Assembly: GCA_035480955.1 (NCBI GenBank)
Contig: DATIHF010000006.1
Coordinates: forward strand, 11,110 to 75,109
Source: Candidatus Saccharimonadales bacterium
Lineage (GTDB): Bacteria > Patescibacteriota > Microgenomatia > Woykebacterales > RBG-16-39-9b
Length of the DNA stretch: 64,000 bases
Direction of reading: 5' to 3'
Positions 2,785 to 52,348 of the stretch are shown piece after piece. Position numbers and translations under genes: made by a program. The notes under the pieces are model-generated. The model did no database searches, was not told the DNA's origin, and worked only from the letters and a program-made list of their open reading frames with translations. Positions within the stretch are counted from its first letter, which is position 1; each line of letters begins with the position of its first letter.

Positions 2785-3408
2785 ATGATGGATCCCTGGG
2801 AAGAAACCTGGGTTAACCATTACGCTGAACTTGGTGTTCCAATGTTCAGTGACGTAAAAGTTTGCAAAAAAGCTTATCGTAAGCAGGCGATGAAATATCA
2901 TACTGACGCGGGTTCTGAGCCAAACAACGCTCGGATGGTAAAACTGAATGCAGCCTTTGAGGTTTTGATCAAAAACCAGGCCAACAAGACACGCTACGAC
3001 CAATATTCCCGTGAAAATAAAATGAGAACAACCTCTGGAACAGGGGCTTCAGCTGGCAGTCCTGGTCCAAGCGGTACCAGAAGAACTCCACCAAGTTCGC
3101 CTAAACCCCCACCGGCATCACCTAAGGTATACAACCCGGTTATTCGAGTTGAGCACCTAGGGTCAAGATTGAAGACTACAACCGAAGGTGAGGCGATAGT
3201 TGAGAAGTTTGTCGTCCACCACGTCAGTGGAGAATTGCCTCCAAATCCACAGCTAGATATTGAGATTGAGGGAATTTTTGAAGAAGCTTTCAGTATCGAT
3301 CAATACCCCAAAAACCGCTTTCCGACGACTGTCGTCGTCAATATCACTCCCCAGTCGACTGGAAGCTATGTCGGCGCGATAAGCTTCCAGATCCTTGACC
3401 CAGCCTAA
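2785..3408 (+). CDS. J-domain protein (DnaJ-like N-terminal domain, HTD variant of HPD) with P/S-rich linker and unknown C-terminal domain
   Basis: YAELGVP..SDVKVCKKAYRKQAMKYHTDAG....LNAAFEVL....RYDQY matches J-domain helices II/III. AAGGAG RBS 5 nt before the ATG. Confidence 0.7.
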   Translation: MMDPWEETWVNHYAELGVPMFSDVKVCKKAYRKQAMKYHTDAGSEPNNARMVKLNAAFEVLIKNQANKTRYDQYSRENKMRTTSGTGASAGSPGPSGTRRTPPSSPKPPPASPKVYNPVIRVEHLGSRLKTTTEGEAIVEKFVVHHVSGELPPNPQLDIEIEGIFEEAFSIDQYPKNRFPTTVVVNITPQSTGSYVGAISFQILDPA

Positions 3409-3418
3409 GGAGGCGAGC

Positions 3419-4129
3419 ATGTCTGAGCAAATCGGTTTGGTCGTACGCAAATCCAGCGAGCCAAACAAAAAGTTGAATCCACAAGGGCAGGCTTACAAGC
3501 AAAAGACAAACCCTGTTTTGGATCTTGTTTTTGTGATCGATACGACAGGAAGTATGAGTGACAAGATTGACAGTTTGTTACGCAAATGCCAAACATTCGT
3601 TGATAAGCTAGCTAGCAGAAAGATCGACTGGCGGATTGCAATAGTTGCTTTCGGGGATCTAACAATCCCAGGAGACAAGATCGTCGCCGCTAGCTTTAGC
3701 AATAAGACAGAGACTGTCAAAGACACTCTAGCAAAAATTCCACGCTTTAACGGCGGTGGCAATGAGGGCGAGTCTTCCTTAGAGGCTCTTCAGAAAGCAA
3801 TGAGTGTATACCAATTCCGACCAAATGCTATCAAAGCTTTTATCTTGTTGACCGACGAGCCAGCTCTGAAGCACCAAAACAGCCCCGAGAGAGTCACAAG
3901 CAGTCTCAGGGAAAGAGGAATTTTGACTTTTGTGATCGCTCCACCACTTCAATACTATAAAGATATGGCCCAAACAACTGGTGGCAAATGGTTCCAGATC
4001 TCAGCGACAACTGACTTTGACTCTATAATCGATATGCTCATTGGGAGTTTGACCGAGGTTGTCGAAGAAGTACAAGAAATCGCCCAAGGAGATGTAGAGA
4101 AATACCTTCGACTTAAAGGAGGTCACTAA
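3419..4129 (+). CDS. von Willebrand factor A (vWA) domain protein with MIDAS-like motif
   Basis: LVFVIDTTGSMSDKI (DxTxS), IAIVAFGD, FNGGGNEGESSLEAL, AFILLTDE and TGGKWFQ are typical vWA/MIDAS blocks. Start moved from the ORF-track TTG at 3395 to the ATG at 3419 because TAAGGAGG overlaps the upstream stop codon. Confidence 0.75.
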   Translation: MSEQIGLVVRKSSEPNKKLNPQGQAYKQKTNPVLDLVFVIDTTGSMSDKIDSLLRKCQTFVDKLASRKIDWRIAIVAFGDLTIPGDKIVAASFSNKTETVKDTLAKIPRFNGGGNEGESSLEALQKAMSVYQFRPNAIKAFILLTDEPALKHQNSPERVTSSLRERGILTFVIAPPLQYYKDMAQTTGGKWFQISATTDFDSIIDMLIGSLTEVVEEVQEIAQGDVEKYLRLKGGH

Positions 4130-4131
4130 CC

Positions 4132-4160
4132 CTGGATTTTTCCGGGGTTATTTTTTGCTT
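4132..4160 (+). terminator. intrinsic terminator after the vWA gene
   Basis: CCCUGGA-UUUU-UCCGGGG hairpin (one G.U) followed by UUAUUUUUU. Confidence 0.45.
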
Positions 4161-4183
4161 AAATAAACTCAGTGTGCTATATA
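4155..4183 (+). promoter_or_regulatory. sigma70-like promoter of membrane-protein paralog A
   Basis: TTGCTT, 17-nt spacer, TATATA. Followed by the conserved GCACATTCACAA box that is also present upstream of paralog B. Confidence 0.4.
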
Positions 4184-4218
4184 GTCACTAGGCACATTCA
4201 CAACCCGATGGAGGGAGA

Positions 4219-4884
4219 ATGCCAAGCAATCGAGTCCGGGTCGATTATGCTCTAAAGGTCATTCCGAAAACTAGACCTCGCCCAACACCAGCTGGACCTA
4301 AAACACCAGTCTACACTTCTACTCCAGCACCAGCTCCAGTATCAATAAGTCCACCAAAGAAATCTGATTGGGATGATTACCCCCTGGGTAAAGTTGGGGC
4401 GTTAGTCTGGGCGATATTCATGCTATTGGTTTTTACAACCGTGATAAGCTACTTCGTCTATAAAGGAACCACAGACGATAGTCCTGATCAAACCTCAGGC
4501 AACAAGTCTTCTGCAGCTGCCTTCCCGACGACAAAAGTACCTGGATATGGCACAGTAACCATGTATCCAAGTAAAAAAATCACCACTGATAACCCTCGTA
4601 TTAACGAGAATACTGTAGCGGATACTTCAGTGCAATTTTGTTTCGTTAATTGGAATAGTAGCAAACCCAACGTTTGTACCTCTTCCTCTCAGATCGTCAA
4701 TGGACAGTATCAGGTATACACCTTACCTGAAGGCCAGTACTGGATATCAGGGGTTAGAAGTAACGGTGAAAAACAGTATGTAGACGGAACAGAGTGGATA
4801 AATGTTTCTGCTGGCTCAAGGTTTACTTTCCATTGCTGGCGTTACACAGAATATGGTAGTGAATGGTTTATCTGCGATGAGTAG
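4219..4884 (+). CDS. single-pass membrane protein, paralog A (cytoplasmic Pro-rich N-tail, TM, Cys-containing extracytoplasmic domain)
   Basis: N-terminal MPSNRVRVDYALKVIPK motif shared with the downstream paralog. TM at ALVWAIFMLLVFTTVISYFVY. GGAGGGAG RBS. Confidence 0.6.
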   Translation: MPSNRVRVDYALKVIPKTRPRPTPAGPKTPVYTSTPAPAPVSISPPKKSDWDDYPLGKVGALVWAIFMLLVFTTVISYFVYKGTTDDSPDQTSGNKSSAAAFPTTKVPGYGTVTMYPSKKITTDNPRINENTVADTSVQFCFVNWNSSKPNVCTSSSQIVNGQYQVYTLPEGQYWISGVRSNGEKQYVDGTEWINVSAGSRFTFHCWRYTEYGSEWFICDE

Positions 4885-4903
4885 TATAAGACAATTTTTT
4901 AGA

Positions 4904-4930
4904 CCCCGAAACTAGAGTTCGGGGTTTTTT
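4904..4930 (+). terminator. intrinsic terminator
   Basis: CCCCGAA-loop-UUCGGGG followed by UUUUUU. Confidence 0.7.
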
Positions 4931-4983
4931 CTTGCTTAATAGAGTAAAATGTACTTAAGCACATTCACAAAAAGAAGGAGAGT

Positions 4984-5580
4984 ATGCCAAGTAATCCAAT
5001 ACGGATAACTTATCGGTTGCGAGTTAAACCAGGCCGTTCAAAGCCAAGCAGAACACCTATTTTCGTTATCCTATTACTTTTCTCGTTGGCTCTTTTAGTC
5101 AGTTTTTTGGTTCTCAAGGGTCAGAGTTATCAAAGCTCTTCTGCGACAAGTTACACGGTGCCGGTTCATAGTTTCATAACGCCAAGCTTTGCAACCCCAA
5201 CTCCTACGTTTAACCAGCCGAGCGTAAACAAAAGTACTTCTTCAAACGAAGTTAAAGGGTCTTTGAAACTTTATTCCACTACTATCTTTTGTCGTAAAGA
5301 AGGTGATTGTAACCCCCCTGGACAAAATCGTTATGACACTTTTTGTTTAGGACCTGTGGGGCAAAGTCCAGGTCTGTTTAACTGTACTCGATACGAAAAC
5401 GGGTACCACATTATCCCGTCTATAATAGCAAGCGGCTTGTACGATATTACAGCGGAGGGGCTCAAAATTTATTTGAAAGTGGGACAGGTAAATATTGTTC
5501 CAGGTCTCACTTCGCTGGTTGACTGTACCATTTACGAATGGAGCGAACGACCAAGCACGGGTACTTGTACTGCTAGATAG
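4984..5580 (+). CDS. single-pass membrane protein, paralog B
   Basis: N-terminal MPSNPIRITYRLRVKPG motif and TM IFVILLLFSLALLVSFLVL. C-terminal domain is Cys-rich and differs from paralog A. AAGGAGAG RBS. Confidence 0.6.
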   Translation: MPSNPIRITYRLRVKPGRSKPSRTPIFVILLLFSLALLVSFLVLKGQSYQSSSATSYTVPVHSFITPSFATPTPTFNQPSVNKSTSSNEVKGSLKLYSTTIFCRKEGDCNPPGQNRYDTFCLGPVGQSPGLFNCTRYENGYHIIPSIIASGLYDITAEGLKIYLKVGQVNIVPGLTSLVDCTIYEWSERPSTGTCTAR

Positions 5581-5602
5581 TCGTACGGATAGAAGAGAGA
5601 TC

Positions 5603-5636
5603 AGGGCGTTCAACAAGTTATTGACCGCCCTTTTTC
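5603..5636 (+). terminator. intrinsic terminator
   Basis: GGGCG...CGCCC stem followed by UUUUU. Confidence 0.6.
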
Positions 5637-5700
5637 TTTGCTTGAATTTCGGTAAACTCAAAGCTTTCACCGCTCCAAAATTTCCTCTAAGAACCTATAG

Positions 5701-5729
5701 TTGAGCTTCTTTGTTTTATTTGCTATAAT
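5701..5729 (+). promoter_or_regulatory. sigma70-like promoter
   Basis: TTGAGC, 17 nt, TATAAT. AAAGGAG RBS before the ATG at 5756. Confidence 0.5.
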
Positions 5730-5755: not shown

Positions 5756-6025
5756 ATGAACCCTGAATTGACCATGCTGCAGTGGGATATCATCGCGATT
5801 GTACGAGAAGGCAACTGGCCTTCGGCAAAGAAGATTCGCGAGCAGCTGGAGAAACGTCATTCTCCCGAAGGTTTGAGCGAGCTCGACGAAATCCTCGACA
5901 TCATGGTTGGGGCAGGATGGATGCAACAAACTCACACTCCGAGAGGTTCGAAAGTCGCCGACCTGAACGAGCGTTATTTTACTGTAACCAAAATGGCGCT
6001 AATACTGTCTCTGGAAGCAGTGTAG
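5756..6025 (+). CDS. small helical protein, possible winged-helix DNA-binding regulator
   Basis: 89-aa helical protein with basic stretches. GC visibly higher than neighbouring genes. Confidence 0.4.
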   Translation: MNPELTMLQWDIIAIVREGNWPSAKKIREQLEKRHSPEGLSELDEILDIMVGAGWMQQTHTPRGSKVADLNERYFTVTKMALILSLEAV

Positions 6026-6038
6026 AAGGGAGTCTCTC

Positions 6039-6299
6039 GTGACGCAACTTGAGCAGCTGACGACGGTCCAGGTTTTCACCTTGGAGCACCTGCGGTTTTC
6101 TTCCGCGAACTGTGCAGAGATTCAGAAAGGGGTAGAGCAGCGTCTCCAAAAGCAGATCAAAAGTGCAGGAGTCTTCATGGCTCAACTGCACGAACTCAAA
6201 CATGCGGGACTGGTCACCTCGGACAAACTCGACGGCATCGCTGTCTACAACATAACCAGTTCAGGTCGAAGTCTGCTTCGAACAGCAACACCTGCTTGA
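6039..6299 (+). CDS. small putative winged-helix transcriptional regulator
   Basis: TTVQVFTLEHL...CAEIQKGVEQ...LHELKHAGLVTSDKLDGIAVYNITSSGRSLL resembles the PadR/MarR-like wHTH pattern. GTG start. Confidence 0.4.
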   Translation: MTQLEQLTTVQVFTLEHLRFSSANCAEIQKGVEQRLQKQIKSAGVFMAQLHELKHAGLVTSDKLDGIAVYNITSSGRSLLRTATPA

Positions 6300-6305
6300 A
6301 ATGCT

Positions 6306-6338
6306 CCGGGAAGTCCCACCAGATTTCCCGGTTTTTTT
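6306..6338 (+). terminator. intrinsic terminator
   Basis: CCGGGAA...UUCCCGG followed by UUUUUUU. Confidence 0.7.
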
Positions 6339-9824: not shown

Positions 9825-10700
9825 TTAGTGCGCTATGATAGTCACCAGATCCTTCACTGTTTGAACTTGCCAGAAGAGATCTTGATCAATGACGGGACGA
9901 CCTTGATCGTCGTAGACGGTGGTTTCGTTCACTCCATCGCCGTCGGTGTCGATCGTTTGGACCGCACCTTTATAAGAGGCGAGGACCAGATCCATGTTGC
10001 CTGGAAAGAGATCCAACAAGTACCGGAAGAGCTTCGCTCCACAGTAAATGTTGGTCTTTAACTCAGACCAGAGCTCCATCGGACAAATTGAGAGGTTGCA
10101 CCCTTGATAGATGCCGACACAGCCCGCTTCTGATGTGATTAGGGACTGACCATCTTTGACCAACACCGCGTTGGGATTTTGGTCTGGATCGAAGTGGTGA
10201 TACTTCGACTCAGTACACCCTAAAGCCATGAACCAGTTCTTCTCGTTCTCAGTGAACGAGATGTCGGTAAGTCCTAGCTCCCTCAACCCGAATTGCTCCG
10301 GGTGATAGAGAAACATATGGACTTGCAGAAAATTGTCGTATTGTTCACGACACGCAGGTGTGATGTTGAAGATATCCTCTTCACTTCCAACTGCAAGCTC
10401 CACCGGTTGCGGCGGACTAGCTGCCTCAAGACTCGGCGAAACAATCGACTGCACTTTCTTCGTCTCGGGCTGCAGGTAAAAAAACAGCACAAAGACGATG
10501 AAGAGGAACGCTGCGATCGTCATGAATGTCCCGATTCCCGGGTTTGCCGATTGCTTCTGCGGGATGCTCTTAAACAACCGACCTAGATCGCCCGTGATCG
10601 GACGATTTTTCCTGCTGCGTGCACCTTTGGCGGGGGCCATGATAATCCTCCTTAGGGATCCAACTAGTTGTTCAGGTACGAAAAAGCGGCTATTCGCCAC
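9825..10700 (-). CDS. membrane-anchored lytic-transglycosylase-like (SLT-like) protein
   Basis: N-terminal TM. GCTESKYH...EAGCVGIYQG...NIYCGAKLFRYLLDLF loosely resembles the SLT catalytic region. GC-elevated. Confidence 0.45.
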   Translation of the reverse strand: MANSRFFVPEQLVGSLRRIIMAPAKGARSRKNRPITGDLGRLFKSIPQKQSANPGIGTFMTIAAFLFIVFVLFFYLQPETKKVQSIVSPSLEAASPPQPVELAVGSEEDIFNITPACREQYDNFLQVHMFLYHPEQFGLRELGLTDISFTENEKNWFMALGCTESKYHHFDPDQNPNAVLVKDGQSLITSEAGCVGIYQGCNLSICPMELWSELKTNIYCGAKLFRYLLDLFPGNMDLVLASYKGAVQTIDTDGDGVNETTVYDDQGRPVIDQDLFWQVQTVKDLVTIIAH

Positions 10701-49306: not shown

Positions 49307-52300
49307 TTATTGTTTTAATTGGGTCGGTGGAAAGCGGAAAATTTCCACTTCCCCACTTTTTCCTGCTATTGCAGGCTCTTTTTTCTCTTCATTCTGCCCA
49401 CCAACTAACCCAGTCGGCAGGTTTTGATTAAGATTTTCCGGAGTAATTTTTGCTTGTTCTTGCTCTTGCCTAGAGATTGCCCCAGGGTCTGGGTAAGATT
49501 CTGTTCCTTCCAGATTTTGATTGAGCTCTTCAAAACTTTCTACCACGGGAATATTTTTATTAAGATCAACATTGTCTTTCGGCGGCAGAAAAGCGGTGTC
49601 AACACTGTTCAAACTAATTGCAGATGGTTGCGGTGGTGCTTGAGGTGTTTGTATTTGTGGTTGGGTGGTTTCTGGAGCAGGAATTGGCGCCGCAACCGGA
49701 GTTTGTGGTGCAGGAGTGCTTTGTGGTTGTTGAAGAGCCTCTGGTACGAATGTCGGTGGGGTTGGTGCACTAACAGGAGCTTTCAAACTTTCCTCGACCA
49801 GTAAATCTGCCAAGGGAGATCCACCTGAAGTGGCTGGTTGTCCAAAAGCGGGTGTTGTTCTAGCTGGAGCAGGAGTGGCGGCCGCAGCGGCAGCGGCACG
49901 AGCTTCTTCGACGGCCCAGGCGGGCGGCTGAGGTGGCTGGCCGGGAATGAATTTCGTCTCCGTCCATTTTTTGATTAATTTCTCTACCTTTTCGACTTCC
50001 TTACCAAACTTGATGCGGGAGAGCTGAATTGCTTTAGTTGTCATTGCCGTAGCATCAGTTGGAGGTGCGAGAGAGACGGCCGAGAATGGTTTTGATCCCT
50101 GATCGTCAATTTGCAGTTTAATATACATTTCGAATCGACCGAGGTTGATAAAATCATTTTCCAAAAAGACCGGTGAGAATTCTCTTTCCAAAAAGTGCGC
50201 GTCCTGATTCCCAACTCCAAAGACAATCGTGGTACCAACGTTTCCAAAAATAGCATCCCGGACAGTTTCCGGCATTTGCTCGATATACTGATGCGTAATA
50301 ACCAAATCCAATCGGTATTTTCTCGCTTCAGAGAGTATCACTGCAAACGAATCTGTCGCAAAGTTTTGGAACTCGTCAGCGTAAAGGAAGAAATCTTGGC
50401 GACTCTCTTCTGGAATATCGACTCGGCGCATGGCGGCAAACTCCAACTGGGAAACAATCATCGCTCCGAGCAGTGAAGTGTTGTTCGCACCGATACGACC
50501 TGAAGCCAAATTGACGAAGAAAAGTTTTTTGTTATTGATAATATCGTCAACTTTGATCGTGGATTTTGGCTGCCCAACAATATTTCTGATCAGCTCACTG
50601 TTTAAGAACTGTCCAACTTTGTTTTGAATTGGTGCGATCGCTTCGGTGATGAGTCGGTCGTTTTGCTCCAATTTGGCAAACTCGGTTAGCCAGAAGTCTT
50701 TCATTTGCGGATCTTTGATGAGCCCCACGATATATCTGCGGTAGCCTTTATCAACCAAAAGTCGAGTGATCGACAACAGTGAGGTGTTTGGCACCTCGAG
50801 AAGTGTCAAAATACAATTTTTCAAAATGTACTCAAGTCGAGGTCCCCAGCTGTTGGCAAAGTATTTTTTGAAAACGTCAACCAGGGTGTCGGCCATCAGC
50901 GTCCTCTGTCTTGGGTCGACCATCTCCAACATGTTCAATGAGACCGGGTGATCCGCATCAGCTGGATTGAAAATGACTACATCTTCAGCTCGGTTTTCCG
51001 GAACAAATTCAAGCAGCTCGTCAATTAATTGTCCATGGGGATCCAAAACCGCCACTCCCTCACCGTTGCGCATATCTTGAATAATCATGTTTTTGATCAA
51101 AGTAGACTTACCCGTACCAGTTTTTCCAATAATATACATGTGTTTTCGTCTGTCGGGCTTTTTAATTCCGAACGTTTGTTCGTGATCGCGGAAATAAGTT
51201 TTACCCAAATAAGTCACCGCTGAAGTCGGGATATTGAGCGGTGGTTCGCCTTTTTTAGAATGAGTCCAGGCAATCGTAGGTGTCTCAACTGAAAGATTTG
51301 GCAAGTGGAATATCGAGGCCAGCTCTTCGATCGTTAAGACATAGTCGCCACTAGCTCCTTCGGGAAAACTCCTATCACGGTAGCTTTTTACCATAGAAGC
51401 GGTGGTCGGACTGTCCGGATCAGGTTCAAAAGCATTTAAGGAGGCGGTGGAAAATTGTTTGAAAGAAGCAATTGCTGAGGAGAGTTTAGCCTGAGCTTCC
51501 TCTTTGGTGTCAGCAACGGCAACAACACGTATTTTTGTTTCAAAACCGATCTTGGAAAGTTTATTCTCAATCATTTTCAGATCAAGTTCTTGTCCAGCCG
51601 AAAGTCTAGGCGCGAGCTCCGCCCGAGCCGGAAGCGGCGGCTCTTTGGGACCGGACATCATGTAAGGAAGGATATTTGTTCCGACTGAGAGAATATGCTT
51701 ACCGACATCAATTGCGATATCTCCAGGAGCCAGAGAAACGGGATGTTTACCCTCTCTAACCATTTTCACGTAGTCATGGCCGCGATCTTGCCAAAAGTCA
51801 TCGATTGGCCGCACCATAATTTGCACCCAAATTTGTTCAGTTTTTCGCACGCTACCTAGTGCACTGGTAATTGCCGCTAGCGGATCCACCTCAAAGTCAC
51901 GGAAAGTTTTGATTGGAAAAATAAAATCTTTGGCGAGAGCCAGCTCTGTTCCGATGACCACAGCATTGTCACTAACGCTTTTAGAATAATCAACTGCTTC
52001 TCGGATCTCAGCATCAGGATATTGTGCGTAGATTTGGCTTTCAACGAAACTTTTGAAACCTCTTGGGGTAAAACAGTAAAAATTGATTCCAGAGGAAGAG
52101 CTGGCCATCTCTAGTGAGATGTGTTCTTGCAAGTCTGGAGTAAAACGCAGTAAACCGTGGAGCGACGCGAACATCTGCTCAGCCGCTATTGGCAGTTTTT
52201 CATTTTCTTTGGGAAGTCGAATAGAAAGGAGTACTCCCTCCCCAATTGCTTCTTTCTTACTATCCCCTTTTTCCTGCGATAAGGCAGAACGGTAAGCCCA

Positions 52301-52348
52301 GAAAAAAGCGATTATTACGATAACTAAAATGCCGCCTATTACTAGCAT
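49307..52348 (-). CDS. membrane-anchored TraD/TrwB/VirD4-like (FtsK-HerA superfamily) P-loop ATPase with long P/Q/A-rich C-terminal tail
   Basis: N-terminal TM. Walker A IIGKTGTGKSTL, VLDPHGQLIDEL and Walker B FFLYADEFQNF. Roughly 250-aa low-complexity C-terminus. Confidence 0.65.
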   Translation of the reverse strand: MLVIGGILVIVIIAFFWAYRSALSQEKGDSKKEAIGEGVLLSIRLPKENEKLPIAAEQMFASLHGLLRFTPDLQEHISLEMASSSSGINFYCFTPRGFKSFVESQIYAQYPDAEIREAVDYSKSVSDNAVVIGTELALAKDFIFPIKTFRDFEVDPLAAITSALGSVRKTEQIWVQIMVRPIDDFWQDRGHDYVKMVREGKHPVSLAPGDIAIDVGKHILSVGTNILPYMMSGPKEPPLPARAELAPRLSAGQELDLKMIENKLSKIGFETKIRVVAVADTKEEAQAKLSSAIASFKQFSTASLNAFEPDPDSPTTASMVKSYRDRSFPEGASGDYVLTIEELASIFHLPNLSVETPTIAWTHSKKGEPPLNIPTSAVTYLGKTYFRDHEQTFGIKKPDRRKHMYIIGKTGTGKSTLIKNMIIQDMRNGEGVAVLDPHGQLIDELLEFVPENRAEDVVIFNPADADHPVSLNMLEMVDPRQRTLMADTLVDVFKKYFANSWGPRLEYILKNCILTLLEVPNTSLLSITRLLVDKGYRRYIVGLIKDPQMKDFWLTEFAKLEQNDRLITEAIAPIQNKVGQFLNSELIRNIVGQPKSTIKVDDIINNKKLFFVNLASGRIGANNTSLLGAMIVSQLEFAAMRRVDIPEESRQDFFLYADEFQNFATDSFAVILSEARKYRLDLVITHQYIEQMPETVRDAIFGNVGTTIVFGVGNQDAHFLEREFSPVFLENDFINLGRFEMYIKLQIDDQGSKPFSAVSLAPPTDATAMTTKAIQLSRIKFGKEVEKVEKLIKKWTETKFIPGQPPQPPAWAVEEARAAAAAAATPAPARTTPAFGQPATSGGSPLADLLVEESLKAPVSAPTPPTFVPEALQQPQSTPAPQTPVAAPIPAPETTQPQIQTPQAPPQPSAISLNSVDTAFLPPKDNVDLNKNIPVVESFEELNQNLEGTESYPDPGAISRQEQEQAKITPENLNQNLPTGLVGGQNEEKKEPAIAGKSGEVEIFRFPPTQLKQ

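Follow-up and report, generated by a model that had tools for sequence, protein, structure and literature searches.

Two kinds of described system are among the closest to the gene pair analysed here. The YSIRK/GS signal peptides (PF04650) and the extended signal peptide region (ESPR) of autotransporters (PF13018) place a short basic N-terminal motif ahead of a hydrophobic segment, and in both systems this motif is common to surface proteins with unrelated exported parts. Lineage-specific tandem arrays of single-pass envelope paralogues are a general pattern in the Patescibacteria, or candidate phyla radiation (CPR), and in Gram-positive bacteria; in such arrays each of the adjacent copies comes with expression signals of its own, and in the proteins the anchoring end is conserved and the exposed domain evolves fast. 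All of these features recur in genes A and B, two adjacent genes on the plus strand of a 64-kb stretch of a metagenome-assembled genome of an uncultured Candidatus Saccharimonadales (TM7) bacterium (contig DATIHF010000006.1; the whole stretch is called the window, and all positions are counted within it), and the core of their common N-terminal motif has the aromatic-x-aliphatic-basic pattern of YSIRK, reading YALK in protein A and YRLR in protein B.

The reading that we favour, at about even confidence, is that A and B are co-regulated, paralogous, signal-anchored envelope proteins that arose by an old tandem duplication and share a cytoplasmic docking peptide. The pair had first been picked out by a model that saw the DNA without any database search (the sequence-only reading), and the coordinates of both genes and of their surroundings are collected in Table 1.

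The clearest link between the two proteins is their N-terminus. Both open with the motif MPSNx[VI]R[VI]xYxL[KR]VxP followed by [KR][ST][RK]PxxTP (opening residues MPSNRVRVDYALKVIP in A and MPSNPIRITYRLRVKP in B; complete 25-residue blocks MPSNRVRVDYALKVIPKTRPRPTP and MPSNPIRITYRLRVKPGRSKPSRTP), and over residues 1–25 they are identical at 12/25 positions and positive at 18/25 (BLASTP E=2e-4). A shuffle test gave z=7.8, with 0/2000 shuffles as good, and a six-frame scan of the window confined the motif to the two open reading frames, so the shared N-terminal motif named by the sequence-only reading holds. Both frames start at an ATG behind a ribosome-binding site (GGAGG before 4219 in gene A, AAGGAG before 4984 in gene B), and NCBI has an identical copy of protein A, annotated as hypothetical, from Candidatus Saccharimonadales. 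Within the peptide, positions 6, 8, 10, 12 and 14 are hydrophobic and the residues between them mostly basic, and the 25-residue block directly adjoins the transmembrane (TM) helix in B (0 residues) and lies about 30 residues from it in A. Codons 3–10 of the motif can also form a small hairpin in both genes (4225–4251 and 4989–5011), in differing registers. The earlier claim that the proteins are paralogous stood for residues 1–25; past residue 25 local alignment is not significant, and paralogy of the whole proteins therefore rests on the 5′ module, the architecture and the position of the genes.

The DNA ahead of the two genes is likewise duplicated. The upstream stretches of A and B (92 and 83 nt) align at z=12.1, a score reached in 0/2000 shuffles, and three direct repeats, with copies spaced 765–777 nt apart, run through them into the coding starts: D7 (4143–4162 / 4920–4939; 90%, 18/20) takes in the right arm of a terminator hairpin, a T-run and TTGCTTAA, and is followed by D3 (4189–4213 / 4956–4980; 80%) and D1 (4215–4248 / 4980–5013; 74%). 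Hairpin T1, ahead of gene A, folds at -16.1 kcal/mol (z=-4.3, 0/200 shuffles as stable) and T2, ahead of gene B, at -14.0 kcal/mol (z=-2.7), which agrees with the terminator-type hairpins reported from the letters. A third, degenerate copy of this element had been proposed past gene B and is indeed present: hairpin T3 (-17.1 kcal/mol, z=-3.1) is followed by TTTTCTTTGCTTGAA (5632–5646), 6 nt and then TAAACTCA, matching 4147–4171, where TAAACTCA occupies 4164–4171 upstream of gene A. All three T-runs lead into TTGCTT(A/G)AA. Closer to the genes lies a 12-mer, GCACATTCACAA, which occurs exactly at 4192 and 4959 and nowhere else in the window. The gap of about 20 nt that had been described between the two upstream elements fits gene B, in which TTGCTTAA and the 12-mer are 19 nt apart, and not gene A, in which they are 29 nt apart.

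For gene A, the spacing of these elements makes a convincing predicted promoter: its TTGCTT is part of TTGCTTAA (4155–4162), and its layout matches that of others in the genome, such as the TTGACA-17-TGCTATACT arrangement before 9825–10700. From the -10 hexamer through the 12-mer, the two genes are identical at 19/26 positions without a gap (TATATAGTCACTAGGCACATTCACAA in A, TAAAATGTACTTAAGCACATTCACAA in B). A promoter scan found no sigma-70-like site upstream of gene B. The leader RNAs have no significant structure (z -0.07 and -0.69) and match no Rfam family, so a structured RNA does not account for their conservation. The gene B 12-mer sits, as read from the sequence, in a 16/18 palindrome, AATGTACTTAAGCACATT (4948–4965), and gene A has the half-sites AGTGTGC (4171–4177) and GCACATT (4192–4198), which lie 14 nt apart rather than 4 as in B, that is, one helical turn more. 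These sites could be an operator, although the two regions can be aligned in more than one way here.

Taken together, these comparisons support the view that the A and B units arose as tandem copies of one unit of terminator, promoter and gene, as had been proposed: the upstream DNA and residues 1–25 align, the repeats keep a near-constant spacing, and the repeated boundary after gene B is the remnant expected when a unit running from terminator to terminator is duplicated in tandem. The duplication had also been called recent, and this has to be withdrawn. Across the 15 motif codons after the ATG, the proportion of differing synonymous sites (pS) is 0.81 (10 differences at 12.3 synonymous sites) against 0.31 for nonsynonymous sites (pN); among codons for identical residues 4/8 differ synonymously (Ser AGC/AGT, Leu CTA/TTG, Val GTC/GTT, Pro CCG/CCA), and outside the 5′ module blastn with word size 7 detected no DNA similarity between the two units. 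Since synonymous sites are saturated and the gene bodies no longer show local similarity, the duplication is old, and purifying selection therefore explains the likeness of the N-peptides and upstream blocks better than youth does. Most likely, then, both the N-peptide and the upstream DNA blocks have been kept by selection, and the 90% and 100% identical non-coding blocks seem best explained by selection on cis-elements. The genes were also considered as targets of a diversity-generating retroelement (DGR) and rejected as such, as blastn at the same word size found no template repeat of the 3′ half of either unit within the window.

Each protein has one hydrophobic peak, with 19-residue Kyte-Doolittle maxima of 2.36 in A (from residues 59–62) and 3.19 in B (from residue 26), and AlphaFold2, given a single sequence for A and a two-row alignment for B, placed TM helices at residues 55–84 of A and 26–49 of B, with a predicted local distance difference test (pLDDT) score of about 90 at the helix cores. 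Net charge is +5 before the helix in A (residues 1–54) and +7 in B (1–25), and -2 and 0, respectively, after it. The hydrophobic segments are 23–24 residues long and run into a helix end that is kept in both proteins, S[YF][FL]V[YL]KG, in which MAFFT aligned S-x-x-V-x-KG; no Ala-x-Ala cleavage site could be read after the helix in either sequence. Hydropathy, model and charge thus agree with the single TM helix and the basic, Pro-rich cytoplasmic tail that had been described, and they support the prediction that A and B are single-pass type II signal-anchor proteins with the N-terminus inside and the C-terminus outside. By the positive-inside rule, and because their Cys counts are even, the variable Cys-containing domain would lie outside.

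Several familiar classes of exported protein were tried and rejected. The helices start GALVWAIF in A and PIFVILLL in B, with no Gly-Phe junction and no Glu at +5 as in type IV pilin-like proteins; SNRVRVDYALK and SNPIRITYRLR lack the adjacent Arg pair of a Tat substrate; the C-termini end FICDE (A) and CTAR (B), with no LPXTG of a sortase substrate; and a lipoprotein reading was rejected from the sequence alone.

Between the TM helix and the C-terminal domain both proteins have a Ser/Thr/Pro stalk. Protein A has four Cys (residues 141, 153, 206 and 219) and B six (103, 109, 121, 134, 181 and 195). Aligned with each other, the ectodomains score z=-0.3 locally and z=2.4 globally, with 26/2000 shuffles as good, and are too far apart for a codon-by-codon alignment, so that the description of Cys-containing and diverged ectodomains is borne out; four of the Cys fall at matching places in the global alignment (MAFFT), and the ectodomains are probably disulfide-bonded. 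The AlphaFold2 model of A has beta strands at residues 138–218, at an ectodomain pLDDT below about 60, and the B ectodomain remained unmodelled (pLDDT ~30); we infer that these domains are beta-rich. A Foldseek search with the low-confidence model of A returned only meaningless matches (E≥0.19). The direct repeat within gene B (75% DNA identity; Table 1) encodes LFNCTRYE and LVDCTIYE, 47 residues apart, and a similar FHCWRYTEYG is encoded near the end of gene A (4825–4854); the ectodomains of A and B may contain a Cys-bearing strand motif that is repeated.

A core of both ectodomains, NGxYxhxxLxxGxYxIs...G...V.V..G, aligns with the repeats of CarboxypepD_reg/SdrD_B proteins. A profile of A and B matches three multi-repeat proteins of this kind at E values of 2e-14 to 3e-6, which are sums over repeats worth 9–17 bits each, and a profile of those repeats matches B at 128–182 and A at 158–182, at corresponding places, in a test that is circular. 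Compared with the CarboxypepD_reg repeats by hhalign, the ectodomain pair scored a probability of 29%, and neither CarboxypepD_reg (PF13620) nor any other Pfam model matched either ectodomain at E≤10. The CarboxypepD_reg-like or transthyretin-like (prealbumin-like) domains (PF13620, SdrD_B, SpaA) differ in that their repeats are without the four and six Cys of A and B. In sequence the ectodomains weakly resemble a CarboxypepD_reg/transthyretin-like beta-sandwich, and a small transthyretin-like beta-sandwich fold is a reasonable guess.

These data can be drawn together as follows. The tandem duplication, long ago, would have covered the entire stretch of terminator tail, promoter, leader, gene and terminator, after which the outer part, stalk and small beta-rich domain, diverged almost beyond recognition, and purifying selection would have held the 25-residue peptide, the end of the TM helix and two upstream blocks, one comprising the T-run and TTGCTTAA and the other the -10 region and GCACATTCACAA. 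The N-peptide would be a short linear motif with an amphipathic-strand pattern, carried on a tether of variable length, that docks A and B to one common cytoplasmic partner for placement, assembly or turnover. This role is suggested by the alternation of hydrophobic and basic residues, the position at the extreme N-terminus and the unconserved distance to the membrane, which fits a tethered docking motif better than part of an export signal. The common leader element could be a joint transcriptional input for both genes, since both carry the 12-mer close to where transcription is expected to begin, which suggests that they are regulated together, and the divergent ectodomains may bind different things at the cell surface.

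Some points weigh against this account. Homology of the A and B ectodomains is not statistically established by the local and global scores given above, and what is called conserved is a single comparison of two sequences, over 25 residues and about 12 synonymous sites. Gene conversion local to the 5′ module could also account for the likeness of the upstream blocks. Because TTGCTTAA and the hexamer are separated by 10 nt less in gene B than in gene A, gene B has no well-spaced -35/-10 pair, and its own transcription is uncertain. The N-peptide has no secondary structure and low confidence in the AlphaFold2 models, and its docking role is putative.

Of the alternatives, the one that fares best takes the N-terminus as a signal-sequence extension of the YSIRK/GS or ESPR type, which would steer or pace export that depends on Sec, the signal recognition particle (SRP) and YidC towards one site in particular; cleavage of the hydrophobic segment might follow and free the C-terminal domains. 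The motif does stand at the extreme N-terminus ahead of the sole hydrophobic segment, it is basic like an n-region, with a Y-x-L-[KR] that recalls YSIRK, and the neighbourhood encodes other envelope proteins, one of which ends in a sortase-type LPNTA anchor. Nevertheless, the N-terminal fragments match neither YSIRK_signal nor ESPR nor any other Pfam family even at E≤10, about 40 residues separate the motif from the hydrophobic segment in A and about 10 in B where YSIRK and ESPR keep a fixed short distance, the segments and the KG that follows carry no Ala-x-Ala-type site, and neither protein ends in LPXTG. We consider this explanation unlikely.

A second alternative, already raised in the sequence-only reading, ties the peptide to the genes upstream of A, which encode a J-like protein and a protein with a von Willebrand factor A (vWA) domain: the N-peptide would be a client tag, a basic-hydrophobic strand similar to DnaK/DnaJ clients that the J-like or the vWA protein binds so as to hold, deliver or anchor A and B. 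The genes adjoin on the same strand, the J-like protein has an additional C-terminal domain of ~90 residues, the vWA protein keeps a DxTxS motif like that of a metal ion-dependent adhesion site (MIDAS), the region upstream of the J gene has a faint likeness (TTGCTTTGCTTT, AGTGTGT) to that of gene A, and DnaK classically binds a hydrophobic core with basic residues on either side. Set against this, a strong terminator closes the J-like/vWA unit, the J domain has HTD rather than HPD, and the J-like protein matches only itself, which leaves no related locus in which co-occurrence could be looked for. A client tag of this pair is distinctly improbable in our judgement, and it would be a long shot that the peptide is a dedicated handle by which a lineage-specific J-like (HTD)/vWA pair recognises, holds or positions a few surface proteins, forming a client-specific chaperone or anchoring module of an epibiotic Patescibacterium whose clients make up one regulon through GCACATTCACAA.

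The two small winged helix-turn-helix (wHTH)-like proteins encoded downstream suggest a third alternative, in which A and B are membrane-tethered sensors whose peptide sequesters these regulators in the manner of an anti-sigma factor or anti-repressor, with GCACATTCACAA as their operator and the system autoregulated. The gene order, two membrane-protein genes followed by two wHTH-like genes, would suit such a scheme, as would a 12-mer at the promoter or leader of both genes that in gene B lies in the 16/18 palindrome. However, no relationship is detectable between the two wHTH-like proteins, yet the two peptides are almost alike; the 12-mer occurs neither in the wHTH promoter nor in the rest of the window; a peptide of 16–25 residues is far shorter than known anti-sigma domains; and the wHTH genes have a promoter and terminator of their own. 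We hold this to be very unlikely. Conservation at the nucleic-acid level, with the 5′ module kept alike by gene conversion or as an mRNA element for translation control and the peptide functionless, would suit the unbroken similarity across the leader and the first ~30 coding bases (D3 and D1; 76% over 51 nt) and the hairpins over codons 3–10, but is scarcely credible given that differences within the motif cluster at synonymous positions with residues kept (pS 0.81 vs pN 0.31), that the hairpins differ in register, and that folding of the leaders does not exceed that of shuffled sequence and no Rfam family matches them.

The account of A and B as anchored envelope paralogues from an old duplication can be set beside the described systems in turn. 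A and B depart from YSIRK and ESPR proteins in having no profile match, a long and variable distance between motif and hydrophobic segment, the look of an uncleaved anchor and neither a C-terminal LPXTG nor a beta-barrel, and in that their motif is found in two proteins of one lineage. The difference from tandem arrays of envelope paralogues is that there are two copies only, and that the window shows no sign of phase variation, of diversification still under way or of a DGR template repeat. Judged by their sequences, A and B are not members of the YSIRK, ESPR, pilin, Tat, sortase-substrate or DGR-target classes; they work most like lineage-specific envelope paralogues in which the anchoring end is kept and the exposed domain drifts.

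Word-seeded searches of 5.8 billion protein clusters matched A and B each only to themselves, and a profile hidden Markov model (HMM) of A and B, run without prefilter, found no further family member among 1.84 billion representative proteins; its fourth outside match, P0007 (123 aa, E=7.7e-4), covers TM and stalk columns only. The motif, written as a degenerate DNA pattern of about 37 bits, was scanned against one genome from each of 185,579 species, JGI metagenomes and viral contigs, collections from which the source genome is absent, and gave 5 genome, 5 metagenome and 0 viral matches, in short or internal open reading frames of unrelated phyla and at about chance level. No phage homologue of A or B was found by tblastn, NCBIfam and PADLOC gave nothing useful for either protein, PADLOC defence models matched six proteins only at E≥0.02, and nothing relevant was found in the literature on N-terminal motifs of Saccharibacteria. 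The locus is also present in two other assemblies, in which 2 of 12,322 bases differ, neither of them in A or B. With no orthologue, third paralogue or strain variant found in the protein, genome, metagenome and viral collections searched, A and B are, as far as their sequences tell, an orphan family of two members in one population. Diversifying selection on the exposed domains and a role as phage or immune target, which the sequence-only reading had proposed, are conjectural for this pair. The locus is not a GC island (41–47% GC across 1–20 kb). In two independent assemblies of the same population, the NCBI contig starts at 2563 and a 3.5-kb Logan contig spans 2546–6058, exactly the J-like, vWA, A, B and first wHTH genes; the contig breaks at 2546/2563 and 6058 may reflect strain-variable borders or a change in coverage.

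Table 1. Features of the A/B locus, with positions counted within the 64-kb window.
Feature	Position	Strand	Description
J-like protein gene	2785–3408	+	Pfam DnaJ E=6.5e-9
vWA protein gene	3395 or 3419 to 4129	+	Predicted cytoplasmic; Pfam VWA E=3.5e-14; NCBI gene calls
Terminator hairpin T1	4127–4150	+	End of vWA gene, then T-run; 10-bp stem, 5 GC pairs
Gene A promoter (predicted)	4155–4183	+	TTGCTT -35-like, 17-nt spacer, extended -10 TGCTATATA (4175–4183); read from sequence
12-mer GCACATTCACAA, copy 1	4192–4203	+	8 nt past -10 hexamer, 15 nt before ATG; near transcript start expected at about 4190
Gene A	4219–4884	+	221 aa; open reading frame and ribosome-binding site
Gene A, N-peptide	4219–4293	+	Residues 1–25; followed by Pro-rich tether
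Gene A, predicted TM helix	4381–4470	+	Residues 55–84; followed by S/T-rich stalk
Gene A, ectodomain	4531–4881	+	Residues ~105–221; 4 Cys, predicted beta-rich
Terminator hairpin T2	4901–4927	+	End of gene A, then T-run; 10-bp stem
Gene B upstream elements	4932–4950	+	TTGCTTAA (4932–4939) and -10-like TAAAAT (4945–4950), 7 nt apart
12-mer GCACATTCACAA, copy 2	4959–4970	+	8 nt past TAAAAT, 13 nt before ATG; near transcript start expected at about 4957
Gene B	4984–5580	+	198 aa; open reading frame and ribosome-binding site
Gene B, N-peptide	4984–5058	+	Residues 1–25
Gene B, predicted TM helix	5059–5130	+	Residues 26–49; followed by S/T/P stalk
Gene B, ectodomain	5245–5577	+	Residues ~88–198; 6 Cys
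Gene B, internal repeat	5374–5397 / 5515–5538	+	Within ectodomain
Unit boundary, partial third copy	5603–5660	+	Hairpin T3 5603–5631; T-run and TTGCTTGAA 5632–5646; TAAACTCA 5653–5660
wHTH-like protein genes	5756–6025; 6039–6299	+	89 aa and 86 aa; promoter 5701–5729 and terminator 6306–6331 (scan)

Adjacency is the sole tie of the J-like, vWA and wHTH genes to A and B. The J-like and vWA genes form a separate transcription unit, which ends at terminator T1. An alignment with CbpA places HTD (residues 39–41, nt 2899–2907) in the J-like protein where CbpA has the HPD tripeptide, which in the J proteins studied is needed for stimulation of Hsp70; the protein was rejected as a canonical J-domain co-chaperone on this replacement of His-Pro-Asp by His-Thr-Asp within a J domain that is present. 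Its extra C-terminal domain has no Pfam or Protein Data Bank (PDB) match, and the whole protein matched only itself among the same 5.8 billion clusters. The faint likeness upstream of its gene (2718–2760) is not statistically supported, and the J gene and gene A may share some promoter or regulatory flavour. The vWA protein had no match in a PDB sequence search, and against phages and plasmids matched only distant vWA domains in large unrelated proteins without a J-domain neighbour. Nothing relevant was found in the literature on J-domain/vWA neighbourhoods.

Downstream, the second wHTH-like protein has a weak PadR match (E=0.001) and another weak match to the 'VpaChn25_0724 family phage protein', and a MacB-type ABC transporter lies past the two genes. 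On the other side of the locus, a minus-strand gene (1970–2566) encodes a Gly/Asp/Asn-rich secreted protein with LPNTANG, then a hydrophobic stretch and then a basic tail at its end, as in a sortase-type cell-wall anchor (weak Pfam Gram_pos_anchor match, E=0.011); the gene is divergent, with a perfect TTGACA-18-TATAAT promoter at 2604–2575. Far from the pair, among housekeeping genes, a minus-strand gene (49307–52348) encodes a 1013-aa protein that contains a coupling-protein domain of the TrwB/VirD4 type, as found in type IV secretion or conjugation-like machines.

The A/B pair is an ordinary kind of duplication in a new, private family, and with two members in one population the result is not generalisable. 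The pair is chiefly useful as a clear-cut example of an old duplication after which anchor and signals stayed conserved and the exposed domain was free to change. To our knowledge, almost nothing is known of how surface proteins are organised in Saccharimonadales epibionts, in which these proteins are a likely interface with the host bacterium. If the N-peptide is a docking or targeting tag, A and B would offer a small, testable case of surface-protein sorting in a reduced-genome epibiont, and the conserved 12-mer would be a starting point for work on transcriptional control in a group in which no regulon is known to have been characterised.

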